Assembly (NCBI RefSeq): GCF_053078305.1
Contig: NZ_CP166879.1
Direction: 5' to 3' (one strand)
Length of the DNA: 64,000 nucleotides
Numbering within the stretch: the stretch's first letter is position 1; each line of letters begins with the position of its first letter. The notes under the pieces are model-generated. The model was not told the DNA's origin. It saw only the letters and a program-made list of their open reading frames with translations, and ran no database searches. Position numbers and translations under genes: made by a program. Positions 17,201-24,161 of this stretch are shown here, piece after piece.

Positions 17201-18868
17201 GTGGCTCAATTCGTTTATACCATGCATCGTGTCGGCAAAGTTGTTCCGCCGAAACGTCATATTTTGAAAAACATCTCTCTGAGTTTCTTCCCTGGGGCAA
17301 AAATTGGTGTCCTGGGTCTGAATGGCGCGGGTAAGTCCACCCTGCTGCGCATTATGGCGGGCATTGATAAAGACATCGAAGGTGAAGCGCGTCCGCAGCC
17401 AGACATCAAGATTGGTTATCTGCCGCAGGAACCGCAGCTGAACCCGGAACACACCGTGCGTGAGTCCATTGAAGAAGCGGTTTCAGAAGTGGTTAACGCC
17501 CTGAAACGCCTGGATGAAGTGTATGCGCTGTACGCCGATCCGGATGCCGATTTTGACAAGCTGGCCGCTGAACAAGGCCGTCTGGAAGAGATCATTCAGG
17601 CTCACGACGGTCATAATCTGAACGTACAGCTGGAGCGTGCGGCGGATGCGCTACGTCTGCCGGACTGGGACGCGAAAATCGCTAACCTCTCCGGTGGTGA
17701 GCGTCGTCGCGTGGCGTTGTGCCGCCTGCTGCTGGAAAAACCAGACATGCTGCTGCTCGACGAACCGACCAACCACCTGGATGCCGAATCCGTGGCCTGG
17801 CTGGAACGCTTCCTGCACGACTTCGAAGGCACCGTGGTGGCGATTACCCACGACCGTTACTTCCTCGATAACGTTGCGGGCTGGATCCTCGAACTTGACC
17901 GCGGTGAAGGTATTCCGTGGGAAGGTAACTACTCCTCCTGGCTGGAGCAGAAAGATCAGCGTCTGGCGCAGGAAGCTTCACAAGAAGCGGCGCGTCGTAA
18001 GTCGATCGAGAAAGAGCTGGAGTGGGTACGTCAGGGAACTAAAGGCCGCCAGTCGAAAGGTAAAGCACGTCTGGCACGCTTTGAAGAGCTGAACAGCACC
18101 GAATACCAGAAACGTAACGAAACCAACGAACTGTTTATTCCACCTGGACCGCGTCTGGGCGATAAAGTGCTGGAAGTCAGCAACCTGCGTAAATCCTACG
18201 GCGATCGCCTGCTGATTGATGACCTGAGCTTCTCGATCCCGAAAGGGGCGATCGTCGGGATCATCGGTCCGAACGGCGCGGGTAAATCGACCCTGTTCCG
18301 TATGATCTCCGGTCAGGAACAGCCGGACAGCGGCACCATCACTTTGGGTGAAACGGTGAAACTGGCATCGGTTGATCAGTTCCGTGACTCAATGGATAAC
18401 AGCAAAACCGTTTGGGAAGAAGTTTCAGGCGGGCTGGATATTATGAAGATCGGCAACACCGAGATGCCAAGCCGCGCCTACGTTGGCCGCTTTAACTTTA
18501 AAGGGGTTGATCAGGGTAAACGCGTTGGTGAACTCTCCGGTGGTGAGCGCGGTCGTCTGCATCTGGCGAAGCTGCTGCAGGTTGGCGGCAACATGCTGCT
18601 GCTAGACGAACCAACCAACGACCTGGATATCGAAACCCTGCGCGCGCTGGAAAACGCCCTGCTGGAGTTCCCGGGCTGTGCGATGGTTATCTCGCACGAC
18701 CGTTGGTTCCTCGACCGTATCGCCACGCACATTCTGGATTACCAGGATGAAGGTAAAGTTGAGTTCTTCGAAGGTAACTTTACCGAGTACGAAGAGTACA
18801 AGAAACGCACGCTGGGCGCAGACGCGCTGGAGCCGAAGCGTATCAAGTACAAGCGTATTGCGAAGTAA
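17201..18868 (+). CDS. ettA: Energy-dependent translational throttle ABC-F ATPase EttA
   Basis: 555-aa ORF with two ABC cassettes (Walker A GLNGAGKST and GPNGAGKST; signature LSGGERRR and LSGGERGR). Confidence 0.97.
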   Translation: MAQFVYTMHRVGKVVPPKRHILKNISLSFFPGAKIGVLGLNGAGKSTLLRIMAGIDKDIEGEARPQPDIKIGYLPQEPQLNPEHTVRESIEEAVSEVVNALKRLDEVYALYADPDADFDKLAAEQGRLEEIIQAHDGHNLNVQLERAADALRLPDWDAKIANLSGGERRRVALCRLLLEKPDMLLLDEPTNHLDAESVAWLERFLHDFEGTVVAITHDRYFLDNVAGWILELDRGEGIPWEGNYSSWLEQKDQRLAQEASQEAARRKSIEKELEWVRQGTKGRQSKGKARLARFEELNSTEYQKRNETNELFIPPGPRLGDKVLEVSNLRKSYGDRLLIDDLSFSIPKGAIVGIIGPNGAGKSTLFRMISGQEQPDSGTITLGETVKLASVDQFRDSMDNSKTVWEEVSGGLDIMKIGNTEMPSRAYVGRFNFKGVDQGKRVGELSGGERGRLHLAKLLQVGGNMLLLDEPTNDLDIETLRALENALLEFPGCAMVISHDRWFLDRIATHILDYQDEGKVEFFEGNFTEYEEYKKRTLGADALEPKRIKYKRIAK

Positions 18869-18877
18869 TGCGTAAAA

Positions 18878-18915
18878 TGCCGGATGCGGCGCGCCAGCAC
18901 CGCATCCGGTATTAG
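18878..18915. repeat. REP-like palindrome, probable ettA terminator
   Basis: GCCGGATGCGGCG...CCGCATCCGGT hairpin 10 bp after the ettA stop. Confidence 0.7.
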
Positions 18916-19023
18916 TTAAATGATTAGTCCCCGGAAAAAGGCAGAATTTTCTTTTAGTGTATTAGCTCAGATGCGGACTGACATCTCAAATCAAGCGGGA
19001 ACTCATGATTCCCGCTTAACGTT

Positions 19024-19911
19024 CTATTCACCGCGCAGAATCTGGCGGAAATGGGAAACCAACGGACGTTGGTTGGCTTTATGCCAGGCTGCCCATAATT
19101 GCGTTGAATAATTCATCCACGGCAATTCACGTAATACCACCCCTTCCGGCGCATTATGACGCAGACTATGTTGAATTAAGGCCAGACCTAATCCCGCAGC
19201 GACCAGACCTAATGCCGTGAGGGGTTCACCCGCTTCCAGGCGAATATCAGGATTAAACCCGGCGTTAACACAGGCGGCGACAAAATGATCGCGAGAATGC
19301 GCATCGTCGTTATGAATCACCGCAATCCACTGCTCATCGCCAAGTTGTGACGCGACAAGGTTTTCCTCCTGCGCCAGAGGATGATTTTGCGGTAAGGCCA
19401 ACAACATTCGATCATCCAGAACCTGAATATATTCCAGATCCTGCTCGCTGTCGGTGGGCGGCGTATCGACCAGAGAAAAATCGAGACTGCGCTGGCGCAG
19501 GCCTTCAATCTGGGTAGCCGGTGGTTGGCTGTAAAGTGCGATATGCACATTCGGACGCGATACACGTAACGTACGTAGCGCCGTAGAAAGCACACCGGAA
19601 TGCATGGCGTTTTCGATATAGCCAATACACAAGCCACCATCTTCCCCCCGTCCCAGGCGTTTGCCTAACGACTCCAGGCGGTTGGCGTGTGTCAGCAACG
19701 AACGTGTTTCGGCAAGGAATGTCTGTCCATCAGCGGTCAGGCGAATGCGCTGCTGATTACGCTCAAACAGCGTCAGCCCCAGTCGTTCTTCCAGTTGTGC
19801 AATCTGGCGGCTCAGCGGCGATTGCGAGATATGTAATCGCTCGGCTGCGCGTCCCACGTGCTCTTCTTCTGCGACCACCACGAAGTACTTCAGTTGGCGT
19901 AAATCAATCAT
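19024..19911 (-). CDS. LysR-family transcriptional regulator (accessory island)
   Basis: ORF 19024..20004; start placed at the Met giving MIDLRQLKYFVVVAEEEHVGRAAERLHISQSPLSRQIAQLEE (LysR HTH); divergent from the AKR-SDR-SRPBCC operon. Confidence 0.85.
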   Translation of the reverse strand: MIDLRQLKYFVVVAEEEHVGRAAERLHISQSPLSRQIAQLEERLGLTLFERNQQRIRLTADGQTFLAETRSLLTHANRLESLGKRLGRGEDGGLCIGYIENAMHSGVLSTALRTLRVSRPNVHIALYSQPPATQIEGLRQRSLDFSLVDTPPTDSEQDLEYIQVLDDRMLLALPQNHPLAQEENLVASQLGDEQWIAVIHNDDAHSRDHFVAACVNAGFNPDIRLEAGEPLTALGLVAAGLGLALIQHSLRHNAPEGVVLRELPWMNYSTQLWAAWHKANQRPLVSHFRQILRGE

Positions 19912-19976
19912 GTTAGACCTCAAAGGACTTAAGTCAGACGAATTATGTCCTATCAAGTCACAACCTCGCAAGGTAT

Positions 19977-19992
19977 TGTGATCCACGTCACA
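19977..19992. promoter_or_regulatory. Perfect TGTGA-N6-TCACA palindrome (CRP-like core or regulator operator) in the divergent promoter region
   Basis: TGTGATCCACGTCACA read directly from the sequence between the LysR start (19911) and the AKR start (20045). Confidence 0.35.
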
Positions 19993-20044
19993 GGGCGATA
20001 GCAAAAAAACGCCCTAACCCAAACCGAATAATTGAGGACATCTT

Positions 20045-21055
20045 ATGAGCATTAAAAATTTACTCCCCGGCAAAATTGGCTTAGGCGGCGCACCACTTGG
20101 CAACATGTTCCGTGCCATTCCGGAAGAAGAGGCCCACGCCACCGTGAGCGAAGCCTGGAACCTGGGTGTGCGTTACTTTGATACCGCGCCGCTGTACGGC
20201 TCTGGCCTTTCTGAAATCCGCATGGGTGAAGCGCTGTCTCAGTATCCACGCGATGAATACGTTCTGAGTAGCAAAGTCGGTCGCATCATGCTGGACGAAA
20301 TGGAAGATCCGGCAAAACGGGATTTCGGTGAAAAAGGTGGCCTGTTCGAACACGGCCTGAAAAACAAAATTCTGAATGACTACTCTGCTGACGCCACTCT
20401 GCGCTCGATTGAAGACAGCCTGAAACGCCTGAAAACAGACCGTCTGGATATTGTCTGGATCCACGACCCGGCGCAGGACTTCTACGGTGACAGCTGGCTG
20501 GAGCAGTTCAACATTGCCCGTACCGGTGCATTTCGTGCGCTGACGCGTTTGCGTGACGAAGGTGTGATTAAAGCCTGGGGACTGGGTGTGAACCGCGTCG
20601 AACCTTGCGAACTGACGCTGGCGCTGGACGAACCGAAGCCGGATGCGTTCCTGCTGGCGGGGCGTTATTCCCTGCTGGATCACGAACGTGCGCTGCAACG
20701 CCTGATGCCAGAAGCACTGGAACAGAACGTGGATATCGTTGTGGGCGGTCCATACAGCTCTGGCGTACTGGCAGGCGGCGAGCACTTTGAATATCAGAAA
20801 GCCTCTGCGGCCATCCAGCAGAAAGTGGCGCAAATTAACGCCATTGCCACACGTTTCAATGTGAACGTTAAAGCGGCTGCGCTGCAGTTCGCGCTGGCAA
20901 ACCCGGCCGTTGCAGCGGTTATTCCTGGCTCCAGCCGTCCTGGTCGTATGGCAGAAGATCTGGCTGCACTGAATGCGCCTGTTCCGGCTGAATTCTGGGC
21001 AGAAATGCGCCGTCAAAATCTGGTTGCGGAAAACGCTCCGCTGCCGACCCGTTAA
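20045..21055 (+). CDS. Aldo-keto reductase family oxidoreductase (accessory island)
   Basis: 336-aa ORF with AKR-like N-terminus (GLGGAPLGNMF...YFDTAPLYGSG...); RBS GAGGA upstream. Confidence 0.85.
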   Translation: MSIKNLLPGKIGLGGAPLGNMFRAIPEEEAHATVSEAWNLGVRYFDTAPLYGSGLSEIRMGEALSQYPRDEYVLSSKVGRIMLDEMEDPAKRDFGEKGGLFEHGLKNKILNDYSADATLRSIEDSLKRLKTDRLDIVWIHDPAQDFYGDSWLEQFNIARTGAFRALTRLRDEGVIKAWGLGVNRVEPCELTLALDEPKPDAFLLAGRYSLLDHERALQRLMPEALEQNVDIVVGGPYSSGVLAGGEHFEYQKASAAIQQKVAQINAIATRFNVNVKAAALQFALANPAVAAVIPGSSRPGRMAEDLAALNAPVPAEFWAEMRRQNLVAENAPLPTR

Positions 21056-21074
21056 TCAACCAGGTGAGAAAACG

Positions 21075-21872
21075 ATGAAACTGGATCTGACAGGTAAAGT
21101 CGCGGTGGTCAGCGGCTCAACCTCCGGCATTGGGCAGGGTATCGCCGCCGGACTGGCAAAAGCAGGCGCAACGGTGGTTGTCGTCGGCCGTAAACAGAGC
21201 GGCGTTGATGACGCCATGGCTGCGATTGCGGCACAAACTCCCACAGCGTCACTGCGCGGCGTGGTGGCCGATCTCAGCACCGAAGACGGCGTGGCTGCGC
21301 TGATCGCTGCAGTCCCAACGGCTGATGTGCTGGTCAATAATCTGGGCATTTTTAACGATAAAGATTTCTTTAGCGTTCCGGATGATGAGTGGATGCACTT
21401 CTATAACGTCAACGTCCTCTCCGGCGTTCGTCTGGCGCGTCACTATGCGCCAGGCATGACGGAACAGGGCTGGGGGCGGATTATCTTTGTCTCGTCCGAA
21501 TCCGGCGTGGCAATCCCTGGCGACATGATCAACTACGGCGTCACCAAAGCCGCGAATCTGGCGGTTTCTCATGGTCTGGCGAAACGACTGGCGGGGACCG
21601 GTGTGACCGTCAACGCCATTCTGCCAGGGCCAACCTTTACCGATGGCCTGAAAGAGATGCTGGCGGATGCCGCTGCACAATCGGGACGCAGTGCGCGTGA
21701 ACAGGCCGATGAATTTGTTAAAACCTCGCGTCCGAGCTCCATCATCCAGCGTGCGGCAGATGTGGAAGAAGTGGCGAATCTGGCGGTTTATCTCGCGTCA
21801 CCGCTTTCCTCGGCAACCACAGGGGCAGCCCTGCGCGTCGATGGCGGCGTCGTCGACACCCTGACAATGTAA
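21075..21872 (+). CDS. Short-chain dehydrogenase/reductase (accessory island)
   Basis: ORF 20973..21872; start at MKLDLTGKVAVVSGSTSGIGQGIA (Rossmann TGxxxGIG) with a YxxxK catalytic motif (YGVTK); 19 bp after the AKR gene. Confidence 0.85.
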   Translation: MKLDLTGKVAVVSGSTSGIGQGIAAGLAKAGATVVVVGRKQSGVDDAMAAIAAQTPTASLRGVVADLSTEDGVAALIAAVPTADVLVNNLGIFNDKDFFSVPDDEWMHFYNVNVLSGVRLARHYAPGMTEQGWGRIIFVSSESGVAIPGDMINYGVTKAANLAVSHGLAKRLAGTGVTVNAILPGPTFTDGLKEMLADAAAQSGRSAREQADEFVKTSRPSSIIQRAADVEEVANLAVYLASPLSSATTGAALRVDGGVVDTLTM

Positions 21873-21897
21873 CCCTATAAATTAAGAGAAAATTATC

Positions 21898-22314
21898 ATG
21901 GCTAAAACAACTGTATCGATCGAAATTCCGGCTTCTGGCGACGCCGTATGGCAATTGATGGGCGGCTTTGATGCGCTGCCAGACTGGCTACCATTCATCC
22001 CGAAAAGCGTGGTGACAGAAGGCGGTCGCGTTCGTTCGCTGACAACCTCTGACGGCGGCACTGTGGTTGAACGTCTGGAAGCGTTTGATAACCGTCAACG
22101 CAGTTATACCTATTCCATTATTCAGGCACCGTTCCCGGTGGTGGATTACCTCTCCACCATTACCGTTCATGAAACCGCCGACAGCCAGGTTTCCCGTGTG
22201 GAATGGTTCGGTGAATTCACCCCGGTGAATGTGACGAACGAAGAGGCCGAGGCGCTGTTTACCGGCATCTATCGGGATGGACTCAAGGCGCTTAAGGACA
22301 ACTTTGTTGCCTGA
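21898..22314 (+). CDS. SRPBCC / Bet v1-like (polyketide cyclase-type) small protein
   Basis: 138-aa ORF 25 bp after the SDR gene; size and composition fit SRPBCC ligand-binding proteins; assignment is by resemblance only. Confidence 0.6.
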   Translation: MAKTTVSIEIPASGDAVWQLMGGFDALPDWLPFIPKSVVTEGGRVRSLTTSDGGTVVERLEAFDNRQRSYTYSIIQAPFPVVDYLSTITVHETADSQVSRVEWFGEFTPVNVTNEEAEALFTGIYRDGLKALKDNFVA

Positions 22315-22471
22315 TGCGATCGACAGGCGTCGGCACGTCCGGCGTCTGATTATTAACAAAAACAGAATAGTCTATTGTCATTTGTATCATTTATGTTATC
22401 AGACAGCAGGCGTATTCTCTCCCCATCGCGTTAATAAACGCCAAACAATTAAGACACTCTGGAATATAAAC

Positions 22472-22684
22472 ATGAAAACGATCATCGCAATTTTTACCGC
22501 TTCTCTTTTCTCTGTCGCGGCGTTTAACGCATCGGCGCAAAGCGTGACAGCAACCGGTACAACACTGGATTCCGCTGAAGCGGTTATTGCGCAGAAAGCG
22601 AAAGAGATGAACGCCTCTGAATACAAAATTACCAGCGCTCGCATGGGCAATACCGTCACCATGAGTGCCGAACTGTATAAATAA
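22472..22684 (+). CDS. DUF1471 (YhcN/YdgH-like) small periplasmic stress protein
   Basis: 70-aa ORF with signal peptide MKTIIAIFTASLFSVAAFNASA and the conserved C-terminal motif of the family (...KITSARMGNTVTMSAELYK). Confidence 0.75.
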   Translation: MKTIIAIFTASLFSVAAFNASAQSVTATGTTLDSAEAVIAQKAKEMNASEYKITSARMGNTVTMSAELYK

Positions 22685-22708
22685 TCGCGCGAGGAACCCA
22701 TTACGTAA

Positions 22709-23039
22709 TTTGCTAAATATGCGCTGAATGCGTTGCCATTAATAAACCGTATTGTACTGCCACCGATGACGCGTTCCCGCGCCGGTGCGGGTGACGTTGC
22801 GATTGGCATGATGGCGGAGTATTACGCGCAGCGCGCCAGTGCTGGACTTATCATCAGCGAAGGTACGCAAATCAGCAGAATCGCTGCGCATAATTTTCCA
22901 CGGCACGCTGATTTACTCCGGTAAATACACCAAAGCGCGCGCCGAACAGGCGCTGGCTAACGGCTGGTCGGATCTGATTGGTTTTGGTCGTCCGTATAGT
23001 GCCAGGAGCGGAAGTTGTCGAAGGGTCATAAAGAGCTAA
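22709..23039 (+). pseudogene. Decayed Old Yellow Enzyme (NemA-like) flavin oxidoreductase: N- and C-terminal fragments with an internal deletion and frameshift
   Basis: Frame A reads ...NRIVLPPMTRSRAGAGDVAIGMMAEYYAQRASAGLIISEGTQIS (like the NemA N-terminus); frame B reads ...HGTLIYSGKYTKARAEQALANGWSDLIGFGRPY (like the NemA C-terminal region); no ATG start; the middle two-thirds of the protein is missing. Confidence 0.7.
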
Positions 23040-23355
23040 ACCCCGGCATTGCTTCTCAGCTGTTTATAGCCGTTCCTGGGTACAAGTGAGCACTAAGGCG
23101 AGCATTGTTATAATCACCAACCAATCACTAGTTGTGTACAAATTCTGACCGCAAAGCGAACTCTCCGGCATGCAGGTTGGAGAAAGCACAGTTGACCTAA
23201 AATGCTCCTCCAGCCAGAAACAAAAGGTGGCCGATAATTCGAAAGCAAAAAAAGATAAAGCAGGGAATGTGCCCGCAAATTCTTAATCATATAGCCAAAC
23301 CGAGCAGCGTATGATATCCAGCCCTGATACGGGCTGGATATTAAATTTTCGCCGG

Positions 23356-23823
23356 TCAGTTATCGCAATGACCTGGCACTGCTAACTTAACTTCAGGTTT
23401 AGAAACGACGCGGATACCTTCGCTTTCGGATACCTGTTCAAGTCCAGCCCCACCAACAAAAACGCCCATTTTGATGTACTGGCGAACAAAGTAGTTTTTC
23501 CCGGACGTGACATTGAGTGTCAGATTATTAGGTGAAAACTCGGATTCAGTTCCCAGCGTATGTGGTTGGCTGGTCGATATTTGCTGATAGAAAAAGACTC
23601 TGTCAGCCGTTTCACCAAGACAACGGCCGTCAAGATAAACATCCTTTTTTAACGCTTTACCAACAAAGCTGTCTCTGTAAACGTATAGACCGGCTTTGCC
23701 ATTTTCCGGGACCGGGAAAGACTTAGCTGTCTCGTTTTCAGCATTACTGCCCAGAGGAACCGACGCACACCCCCCCAGAAGCACTGAGGAAATAATGACT
23801 GCGCCAAATAAAATTTTATTCAT
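23356..23823 (-). CDS. Lipoprotein (DUF2846-like)
   Basis: 155-aa ORF with lipobox (MNKILFGAVIISSVLLGGC-ASVP). Confidence 0.8.
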   Translation of the reverse strand: MNKILFGAVIISSVLLGGCASVPLGSNAENETAKSFPVPENGKAGLYVYRDSFVGKALKKDVYLDGRCLGETADRVFFYQQISTSQPHTLGTESEFSPNNLTLNVTSGKNYFVRQYIKMGVFVGGAGLEQVSESEGIRVVSKPEVKLAVPGHCDN

Positions 23824-23949
23824 TGAATTCTCATGGAGTTAAGAAAATCGCCAAATGAGAATAAACTTATTTTACACTTATGTCATTAAAGGAGGCATTG
23901 CTTCACAACAACATCAATGTTCATCCCGGAACCGTCCACTTCCGCTTCT

Positions 23950-24128
23950 CGCTCAAAACGGACTGTCATATTTGATTGCATTCTGGCTACGCAACCGGTC
24001 GGTTGGAGTATGAAGTTGCTCACGAATAGCCTTAGCATCCGCAATTTCGTAGCGGGTCACCCGTACAGGTTCTTTCTAATCTCGACAGCCTCTTCCAGAG
24101 AGGTTTTCAACTCATCAAAAAAACTCAT
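23950..24128 (-). pseudogene. Remnant of a small XRE-family antitoxin-like gene (N-terminal fragment, frameshifted)
   Basis: Minus-strand ATG at 24128 gives MSFFDELKTSLEEAVEIRKNLYG then a stop; a shifted frame continues RVTRYEIADAKAIREQL...; resembles the N-terminal region of COG2944-type HTH antitoxins; it sits 33 bp from the nadR stop. Confidence 0.4.
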
Positions 24129-24161
24129 TTTATACCTCGCCTTTGAGCAGTTTCATCACGG

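Follow-up and report, generated by a model that had tools for sequence, protein, structure and literature searches.

The islet between ettA and nadR

In the stretch of E. coli-like chromosome analysed here (64,000 nucleotides of contig NZ_CP166879.1, RefSeq assembly GCF_053078305.1; hereafter the window), the gene order slt, ettA, nadR, radA, serB is interrupted between ettA and nadR by a block of accessory DNA. The block carries the gene of a LysR-type transcriptional regulator (LTTR), a divergent operon for an aldo-keto reductase (AKR), a short-chain dehydrogenase/reductase (SDR) and an SRPBCC protein, a gene for a small DUF1471 protein, the remnant of an old yellow enzyme (OYE) gene and, at its right end, a DUF2846 lipoprotein gene enclosed by two inverted hairpins (Table 1). 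An earlier note on this DNA had described an island of LysR-regulated oxidoreductase genes and decayed genes here; every gene that it listed was found at or near the place that it gave, and the spacers of the operon measure exactly 19 and 25 bp. It had also described ettA and nadR as adjacent in K-12, and our comparison agrees that the block is missing there: the ettA-nadR gap holds only a 114-bp nadS pseudogene in K-12 (MG1655), where the same block was looked for and is absent, and an intact pair of RelE/ParE toxin and NadS antitoxin genes in UTI89, so that the block is accessory. As the note had said too, no integrase or insertion sequence (IS) lies inside it.

The edges of the block locate its insertion. 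Although the block is real, its foreign DNA begins at 18991-18993 and not at 18869, where the earlier note had started it: positions 18869-18954 are native sequence downstream of ettA together with the 3' end of nadS, and a blastn match to the end of ettA and the sequence after it in UTI89 (L004 2217-2343) covers window 18800-18926. On the other side, window 24014-24158 is 90% identical to the 5' part of UTI89 nadS. Because pieces of nadS stand at both edges of the block, the islet sits inside nadS; the antitoxin-like remnant reported earlier is indeed present, but it is one half of a gene that the islet has split, which the earlier note had missed. No match to the RelE toxin gene was found in the window region, and the 5' fragment of nadS has a premature stop, so that the window does not hold a RelE/ParE-NadS pair. 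Judged by its sequence, the block appears to be a composite accessory islet within nadS of an old RelE/ParE-NadS locus. In the literature searched, nadS comes up only as a small gene that K-12 expresses (PMC12350097).

The islet lacks the marks of a classical genomic island, as there is no integrase or IS, the target is a protein gene, nadS, and only a weak direct repeat of 12 nt is present. The GC content is 0.54 in the module formed by the regulator gene, the operon and the genes that follow it, 0.55 in ettA and 0.51 in nadR. A search of 16.5-26 kb against Rfam gave nothing at the gathering threshold, and PADLOC recognized no defence system among the operon and cargo proteins. Directly after ettA, at window 18879-18910, stands a palindrome resembling a repetitive extragenic palindromic (REP) unit, GCCGGATGCGGCG...CGCATCCGGT; in K-12, two such REP-like units occupy the gap where nadS sequence is missing.

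Among 5,426 complete E. coli genomes, 482 (8.9%) carry the islet, O145:H28 strains among them; by megablast, at least 80% of the block is found in 479 of the genomes and the entire block in none. Over 4,078 bp of the block, the window is 99.9% identical to E. coli ETEC6335. The islet itself is an ordinary, already-annotated part of the E. coli accessory genome, and the points of interest are a regulator-operator-enzyme module that recurs across phyla and the hairpin-bounded slot at the right end, rather than the islet. A 2.1-kb contig labelled as a Collinsella sp. metagenome-assembled genome, 99-100% identical to the islet (SDR, SRPBCC, DUF1471 and the start of nadR), is almost certainly a contaminant of the bin from E. 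coli.

Table 1. Features of the ettA-nadR islet in window coordinates, followed by arm-bounded loci elsewhere in coordinates of the contigs named.
Feature	Position	Strand	Basis or remark
nadS 3'-terminal fragment (antitoxin gene), left islet edge	18924-18954	-	blastn: 18926-18954 = UTI89 (L004) 2354-2382, last codons within UTI89 nadS coding sequence 2341-2625
Possible degenerate third arm copy	18965-18984		GCTCAGATGCGGACTGACAT; direct orientation relative to the right-hand arm; weak, only core GCGGACTG.CA convincing
Module (LysR, AKR, SDR, SRPBCC, DUF1471, decayed OYE)	18993-22684		
Hairpin 3' of lysR, left end of the putatively mobile module	18993-19017	-	AAGCGGGAAC-N5-GTTCCCGCTT
LysR-type transcriptional regulator, 295 aa	19024-19911	-	Open reading frame; RefSeq WP_000566334.1 100% identical; divergent from operon
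Conserved putative operator / divergent promoter block, about 45 bp	19915-19959		AGACCT-N5-GGACTyAAGT-N7-ATTATGTCyTGGACrGTC
Aldo-keto reductase, 336 aa, aldose-1-dehydrogenase-like branch	20045-21055	+	PF00248
Classical SDR oxidoreductase, 265 aa	21075-21872	+	PDB 8g9m E = 9e-138; 3t4x E = 1e-70
SRPBCC / Bet v1-fold protein, 138 aa	21898-22314	+	Pfam PF10604 E = 1.2e-29, residues 1-136
DUF1471 (YdgH/BhsA/McbA family) small exported protein, 70 aa	22472-22684	+	RefSeq WP_000848792.1 identical; PF07338
NemA-like OYE flavin reductase pseudogene	22709-23004	+	Residues 3-59 fused to about 275-330 (tblastn/blastn against the intact 365-aa gene, E. coli E69 L007 10806-11903)
Left (type 2) arm	22990-23016	+	GTCCGTATAGTGCCAGGAGCGGAAGTT; inverted repeat
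Exchangeable cassette, 959 bp	23005-23963		GC 0.447 (measured on 23017-23936)
11-bp-stem hairpin directly downstream of the DUF2846 gene, likely terminator	23314-23341	-	Inverted repeat, 100% complementary
DUF2846 lipoprotein, 155 aa, cassette cargo	23356-23823	-	Pfam PF11008 E = 2.7e-23; lipobox LLGGC seen in sequence
Right (type 1) arm	23937-23963	-	GTCCGTTTTGAGCGAGAAGCGGAAGTG on minus strand
nadS 5' part, pseudogene	23964-24128	-	ATG at 24128; translation MSFFDELKTSLEEAVEI..., stop after 23 codons; PGAP labels the equivalent stretch NadS pseudogene
Arm pair in the Qin prophage of K-12	L099 3501-3527 and 4489-4515		
Arm-bounded cassette array, cryptic Escherichia, yedEF/DUF1398 to fliE	L096 5861-7849		
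Arm-bounded cassette array, E. coli J31, near ybhB/bio	L097 2906-4729		
Arm-bounded cassette array, E. coli A2, beside paoD	L098 3001-4458		

The regulator-operator-enzyme module

The core of the module recurs far outside Escherichia. With the SRPBCC protein as probe and one genome per species (GTDB), 80 loci were recovered. The 13 loci in Enterobacterales all have the LysR, AKR and SDR genes adjacent, and the 43 in Pseudomonas have LysR adjacent in 35, AKR in 35 and SDR in 37. The seven loci in Burkholderiales/Neisseriales and the two in Rhizobiales each have LysR and AKR, and none has SDR; LysR adjoins in nine and AKR in 11 of the 13 actinomycete loci, again with SDR in none. AKR also adjoins SRPBCC in a Mucilaginibacter locus, and some Pseudomonas loci without AKR contain remnants of it. 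Outside Enterobacterales, identity to the window is 60-75% for LysR, 67-78% for AKR and 58-68% for SRPBCC. For the AKR of Pseudomonas simiae WCS417 and of P. fluorescens strains it is 75%. Clustering of 1,432 neighbouring open reading frames revealed no further neighbour that is conserved between genera, only genus-specific synteny; the module is therefore self-contained. In Gottfriedia, a Firmicute, the AKR-SRPBCC pair comes after a gene for an HxlR-family regulator and an OYE gene; directly downstream of that pair (L102/L103 6706-7740) lies a CAP12/PCTIR TIR-domain gene, which is probably an unrelated defence gene.

The 133-bp region between lysR and the AKR gene contains a block of about 45 bp that we take as the putative operator, and the same block recurs between lysR and the AKR gene in 65 loci of Enterobacterales, Pseudomonas, Burkholderiales, Rhizobiales and actinomycetes. 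As operator, regulator and enzymes are conserved together, they are inherited and transferred as one piece, and the description in the earlier note of a LysR gene divergent from a tight AKR-SDR-SRPBCC operon is strengthened by their travelling together in 65 loci of several phyla. Few LysR regulators remain 60-78% identical, together with their operator and target enzymes, between E. coli and Streptomyces as this one does; conservation over such distances suggests that one ligand and one substrate occur in many habitats. Full-text literature searched with gene names, accessions, domain combinations and arm sequences contained no paper that deals with the module, islet or arms.

The regulator belongs to the LTTR family, with matches to PF00126 (HTH_1) and PF03466 (LysR_substrate) on the 295-aa orthologue, to 53 LTTR models of NCBIfam and, over its full length, to LTTR structures in the PDB. 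It falls below the cut-off of every named LTTR model in NCBIfam (AlsR, the best, 223 against 430; PRK09986, 206 against 290), and its nearest families in NCBIfam and the PDB are AlsR, BenM and CatM. The layout is likewise that of an LTTR, a divergent gene pair with a conserved site between them that would serve for binding. By a promoter scan and reading of the sequence, the putative operator overlaps a promoter-like site of lysR and the -35 region of the operon promoter; a CAA.CTA element comes after it.

The three operon products fall clearly into superfamilies. PF00248 matches all 120 AKR homologues listed, and the catalytic tetrad of the AKR (D46, Y51, K77, H140) aligns with, and is identical to, that of L-galactose dehydrogenase. 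Its nearest solved relatives are aldose-1-dehydrogenases, namely the plant L-galactose dehydrogenases (E = 2e-29), so that it may work in the dehydrogenase direction, and some sources automatically name its orthologues 'D-threo-aldose 1-dehydrogenase'. It scores below the cut-offs of the characterized equivalogs (71 against 550 for the methylglyoxal reductase YdjG; lower for DkgA/B and Tas). The SDR has the motifs SGSTSGIG, VSSES and YGVTK of the classical type and is nearly identical to the solved protein 8g9m and similar to 3t4x, both structures without a characterized function; 230 SDR models of NCBIfam match it, none above its cut-off, and the assignment is generic only. The SRPBCC protein matches PF10604 (Polyketide_cyc2) over its full length and resembles two Bacillus structures, PDB 3cnw ('XoxI', E = 6e-52) and 3f08 (E = 2e-50). 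No operon protein reaches a curated NCBIfam cut-off for a characterized function, and none of the three genes proved to have a well-characterized, unrelated role, which would have told against grouping them as the earlier note had done. LysR, AKR, SDR and SRPBCC are all full length in the window and 99-100% identical to proteins common to many strains.

Behind the operon lie the DUF1471 gene and the OYE remnant. The DUF1471 protein is placed by PF07338 and by the PGAP name of an identical protein, and it stays below the NCBIfam cut-offs of BhsA, RclB and YhcN (31 against 90 for BhsA). The OYE gene has lost 686 bp internally and is truncated at its 3' end, so that the intact Oxidored_FMN barrel of about 365 aa is missing from the window; the gene is intact in E. 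coli E69 and in Yokenella, and the E69 protein scores 396 against the cut-off of 403 for the N-ethylmaleimide-reductase subfamily. The earlier note had placed three reductase families under one LysR regulator. The AKR and SDR do lie in the operon, but the OYE is dead, follows a separate DUF1471 gene and stands outside the cross-phylum core; the claim was overstated because the OYE is a remnant and peripheral to what is conserved.

The same module ends occur in three unrelated Escherichia contexts, namely the window, E. coli E69 (L007) and Escherichia whittamii (L008). On the left, homology starts at window 18991-3, which corresponds to L007 7096 and L008 7094; on the right, it ends in E69 and E. 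whittamii 5 bp past the stop codon of the 365-aa OYE gene. On this comparison, the main part of the block, about 4.8 kb, appears to be a discrete unit that moves horizontally. In the contexts examined it comes with no integrase or transposase and no clear target duplication. All ettA-nadR islets share one and the same 686-bp internal OYE deletion and 3' truncation, and they therefore descend from a single insertion. In a food-metagenome E. coli contig (L087 5857-6563), an IS200 copy of about 705 bp with a Y1 transposase is inserted exactly at the lysR hairpin; this insertion is incidental.

The hairpin-bounded slot and its arms

The DUF2846 gene at the right end of the islet lies between two 27-nt arms, 920 nt apart and inverted relative to each other. 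The arm stems are GTCCGCTT/AAGCGGAC and the loops TGAGCGAG or TGTGCCAG, giving GTCCGCTT-TGAGCGAG-AAGCGGAC and GTCCGCTT-TGTGCCAG-AAGCGGAC; the type 1 consensus GTCCGCTTCGAGCGAGAAGCGGAAGTT folds as DNA into a hairpin with an 8-bp stem (-8.4 kcal/mol, z = -3.8), and a scan for the arm motif gave 0 matches in shuffled windows. The window, strain GF60 and an O158:H23 strain are common up to window 23004-23017 and again from 23938, with unrelated cargo between: the DUF2846 lipoprotein gene in the window, and a GNAT gene or a pair of winged helix-turn-helix (wHTH) and TauE genes in the others. A junction-specific query showed that 441 genomes of the E. coli survey have lost the slot through a deletion of 1,009 bp (22947-23955 in the window), and the 41 carriers that keep the slot region have either the GNAT gene (20) or the wHTH gene together with a split TauE/TSUP transporter gene (21). 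The DUF2846 version occurs in none of the 5,426 complete genomes. It is present in NCBI assemblies (L091-L095) with extra deletions of 546 bp in the AKR gene and 200 bp in the SDR gene, and the window is thus the least decayed representative seen of the DUF2846 lineage. A metagenome scan with the left slot junction returned four contigs only, all of two already known cargo types, and a permissive Rfam scan of the slot gave matches at chance level only.

The earlier note had listed a DUF2846-like lipoprotein, which is indeed present, but it had missed that hairpins set off a separate cassette of prophage type here, with this gene as its cargo. Identity to DUF2846 homologues is 90% in Raoultella and 95% in cryptic Escherichia; the cassette has no match in the phage collection, no exact protein is on record, and among plasmids only an 8.6-kb Tn3/tet(A) plasmid has a match, a gene at 71.6%. 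The whole of 23005-23963 recurs, 94% identical, in cryptic Escherichia (L096 5861-6819), between the yedEF side and fliE. The point where homology with the window starts there falls within the type 2 arm, as would be consistent with crossing-over in the arms. A second arm-bounded cassette follows in the same array and is also found beside a prophage in E. coli J31; the joint of the two cassettes is a 71-bp imperfect palindrome in which 17 nt separate a type 2 arm from a type 1 arm. The arrays of cryptic Escherichia, J31 and A2 have an outer flank of 140-190 bp and the arm in common, with different cargo.

It could be argued that no cassette has been exchanged and that one larger ancestral island with DUF2846, GNAT and wHTH/TauE genes was reduced by independent nested deletions, and the frequency of deletions in the islet and the flanks common to all variants speak for this. 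However, the sequences of the three variants part at two shared positions, directly inside each arm; an unrelated locus contains the DUF2846 unit, arms included, as a 959-bp block; a second set of loci, the three arrays just mentioned, shows the same pattern of replacement; and the same arm pair flanks unrelated prophage cargo. On these grounds we reject the single ancestral island and regard it as highly improbable.

The arms are widespread outside the islet. A 31-nt type 1 probe found 1,783 of the 5,426 complete E. coli genomes, with one to four places in each. K-12 has a type 1 arm between ydfW and flxA of its Qin prophage, and the inverted type 2 partner of that arm lies inside ydfV. An exact type 1 arm is also carried by 21 prophage contigs of IMG/VR (L104-L124), in 13 of which an inverted type 2 arm is found 1.0-3.4 kb away. 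One of these contigs has the pair between replication/Ren-like genes and the mok/hok, DUF968, RusA and Q genes, where it brackets a helix-turn-helix (HTH) regulator gene and an acetyltransferase gene; the acetyltransferase cargo of one prophage belongs to the same PHROG as the GNAT cargo of O158:H23. The prophages and the islet have only the arms, 27-32 nt, in common. Inverted type 1 and type 2 arms of 27 nt around 1-3.4 kb of variable cargo thus define such a slot, and the exchange of cargo together with the arm pairs in Qin and the IMG/VR prophages indicates that the slot of the islet has the architecture of an accessory hot spot of lambdoid prophages. The slot thereby links a chromosomal islet to that hot spot, and the two 27-nt hairpins offer a sequence handle for finding and explaining the modular exchange of small 'moron' genes in E. 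coli.

Two loci bring arms and LysR-like sequence together. In E69, the intact module is followed (L007 11900-12400) by a stretch resembling a LysR-gene remnant and by a type 1 arm; in E. coli A2, a LysR pseudogene adjoins paoD and is followed by arms (L098 2357-2695). The E69 module may be located in the paoD/yagP (CP4-6) region.

Mosaicism in lambdoid phages involves exchange through very short homology by phage recombinases, and by analogy it is plausible that the arms are exchanged in the same manner. When Qin of K-12 is compared with one prophage contig (L108), type 1 and type 2 arms are seen to have traded places with respect to the replication genes and hok, as would result if the whole segment between the inverted arms were inverted. 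An integron or Xer (dif/pdif) reading of the arms was rejected, as attC cores and TTATG.TAAA-type half sites are missing on inspection, and no IntI or other recombinase gene is found near the arms in the loci examined. The arms can also be read as a coding segment (frame PLRARSG, with synonymous differences between the types); this was set aside or left open, as most copies have an in-frame TGA and the frames differ where arms overlap coding sequences (ydfV, and an HTH gene in ECONIH1). We found no recombinase, Rfam family or paper that accounts for the arms.

Possible function and relation to known systems

With only slightly better than even confidence, we lean towards a composite islet whose module is induced by a ligand and uses NAD(P)H to detoxify a quinone, a reactive carbonyl or an electrophile of that sort. 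The regulator would bind the putative operator, which overlaps both the promoter of the regulator gene and the -35 region of the operon, and the binding of a small ligand by the regulator would activate the operon. The two NAD(P)(H) enzymes would then reduce or interconvert the carbonyls of a hydrophobic reactive compound (a quinone, an aldehyde or ketone, or a lactol), which the SRPBCC protein may bind or present. In Enterobacterales, the module would be extended by a NemA-like ene-reductase, which is dead in this strain, and by a periplasmic DUF1471 protein of stress type. The role in electrophile or carbonyl stress is our best guess, because the association with OYE recurs independently (in Enterobacterales and in Gottfriedia) and the DUF1471 relatives include BhsA, RclB and YhcN. 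Electrophile detoxification as suggested by the earlier note is accordingly a reasonable proposal that draws some support from the independent OYE/HxlR association in a Firmicute, but the evidence bears it out only in part.

Several observations weigh against this reading. The regulator groups with the organic-acid sensors AlsR, BenM and CatM and not with known electrophile sensors; the solved relatives of the AKR oxidize aldoses to lactones, and the AKR may thus be a dehydrogenase that acts on a lactol instead of a reductase that detoxifies. An OYE gene stands beside the module in only 5 of the 80 GTDB loci, all in Enterobacterales, and in the one Firmicute locus, which was found separately. 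Consensus promoter and terminator scans of the region performed no better than chance, and neither NCBIfam nor the literature yielded an experiment, expression data or a characterized orthologue of the module. Finally, given the AKR and SDR deletions in other E. coli lineages, such as L091-L095, selection on the module in E. coli may be weak.

The main rival, which we judge unlikely though deserving of attention, has the module break down or modify one specific natural product or sugar-like lactol in a short pathway. In that case the AKR would be an NAD(P)+-dependent 1-dehydrogenase that converts a hemiacetal to a lactone, like the L-galactose, L-fucose and pyridoxal dehydrogenases, the SDR would catalyse a second oxidation or reduction, the SRPBCC protein would be a carrier, isomerase or cyclase, and the LysR protein would sense the substrate or the acid product. 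The nearest solved relatives of the AKR and the automatic names of its orthologues fit such a pathway, as do the proximity of the regulator to acid-sensing LTTRs and the predominance of soil and rhizosphere genera in the distribution of the module. However, no phylum conserves a transporter, lactonase, dehydratase or other pathway gene beside the module, the identity to L-galactose dehydrogenase is modest and lies mainly in the cofactor site and catalytic core, and the OYE and HxlR associations suggest stress chemistry. It is also conceivable, but quite unlikely in our estimation, that the islet is a decaying, functionless relic in E. coli that hitch-hikes in a recombination-prone intergenic spot, its intact genes being merely not yet broken. 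The OYE is dead in all ettA-nadR islets, the slot has been lost from 441 of the 482 carriers, the SDR gene is frameshifted in GF60, and deletions have reached both AKR and SDR in L091-L095. Against a relic stand the four full-length genes of the window and the near identity of their products to those of many strains, the 1,268 member sequences in the 90%-identity cluster of the AKR, and the obvious purifying selection on the four genes and the operator across phyla.

Taking the module and the slot together, we can speculate, with low confidence in the whole, that the arms are an undescribed cassette-exchange system of Escherichia and that the module is a dedicated sensor and detoxifier for one widespread natural compound. 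The arms would be crossover points at which cargo is swapped, and possibly inverted, in lambdoid prophages and chromosomal islets, and the agent would be a site-specific recombinase or Red/RecET-type phage recombination acting on very short homology.

Among known systems, the 'moron' hot spots of lambdoid prophages, as in the flxA-ydfV-relBE region of K-12 Qin, have the same inverted hairpin pair and 1-3.4 kb of variable cargo; the cargo genes there are small and often without an assigned function. The pair described here differs in lying in a chromosomal islet without surrounding phage genes. Integron cassettes and the pdif modules of Acinetobacter likewise consist of discrete cargo with short, imperfectly palindromic sites, alternative cargos at one position and, as in the cassette joint of cryptic Escherichia, a palindrome of about 71 bp. 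However, the arms have no attC cores (GTTRRRY/RYYYAAC) and no resemblance to XerC/D dif-type sites, and the likeness is one of form only and not of membership.

For the enzymes, the AKR has the (alpha/beta)8 domain and the catalytic Asp, Tyr, Lys and His in common with plant L-galactose dehydrogenase and D-threo-aldose 1-dehydrogenase, whereas its similarity to this branch is moderate and its module context contains no sugar-pathway genes. The SRPBCC protein, through its full-length PF10604 match, resembles the Bet v1, PYR/PYL and polyketide-cyclase proteins, with weak similarity to the plant abscisic acid (ABA) receptors PYL9 and PYL10; its solved homologues 3cnw and 3f08 are structural-genomics entries without an assigned function. 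As in NemR-nemA-gloA and rclR-rclABC, a dedicated regulator governs a few cytoplasmic reductases, and the enterobacterial version of the module adds a NemA-type OYE and a DUF1471 protein comparable with RclB. Unlike those systems, the module has a LysR-type regulator instead of one of the TetR or AraC type and a core of AKR, SDR and SRPBCC without a glyoxalase, and its nemA-like gene is dead in the window. The regulation has its closest parallels in BenM/CatM and AlsR, which have the same domain architecture, divergent arrangement and operator between the two genes; the regulator of the module, however, scores far under their cut-offs, and its putative operator has a sequence that is specific to the module and conserved across phyla.

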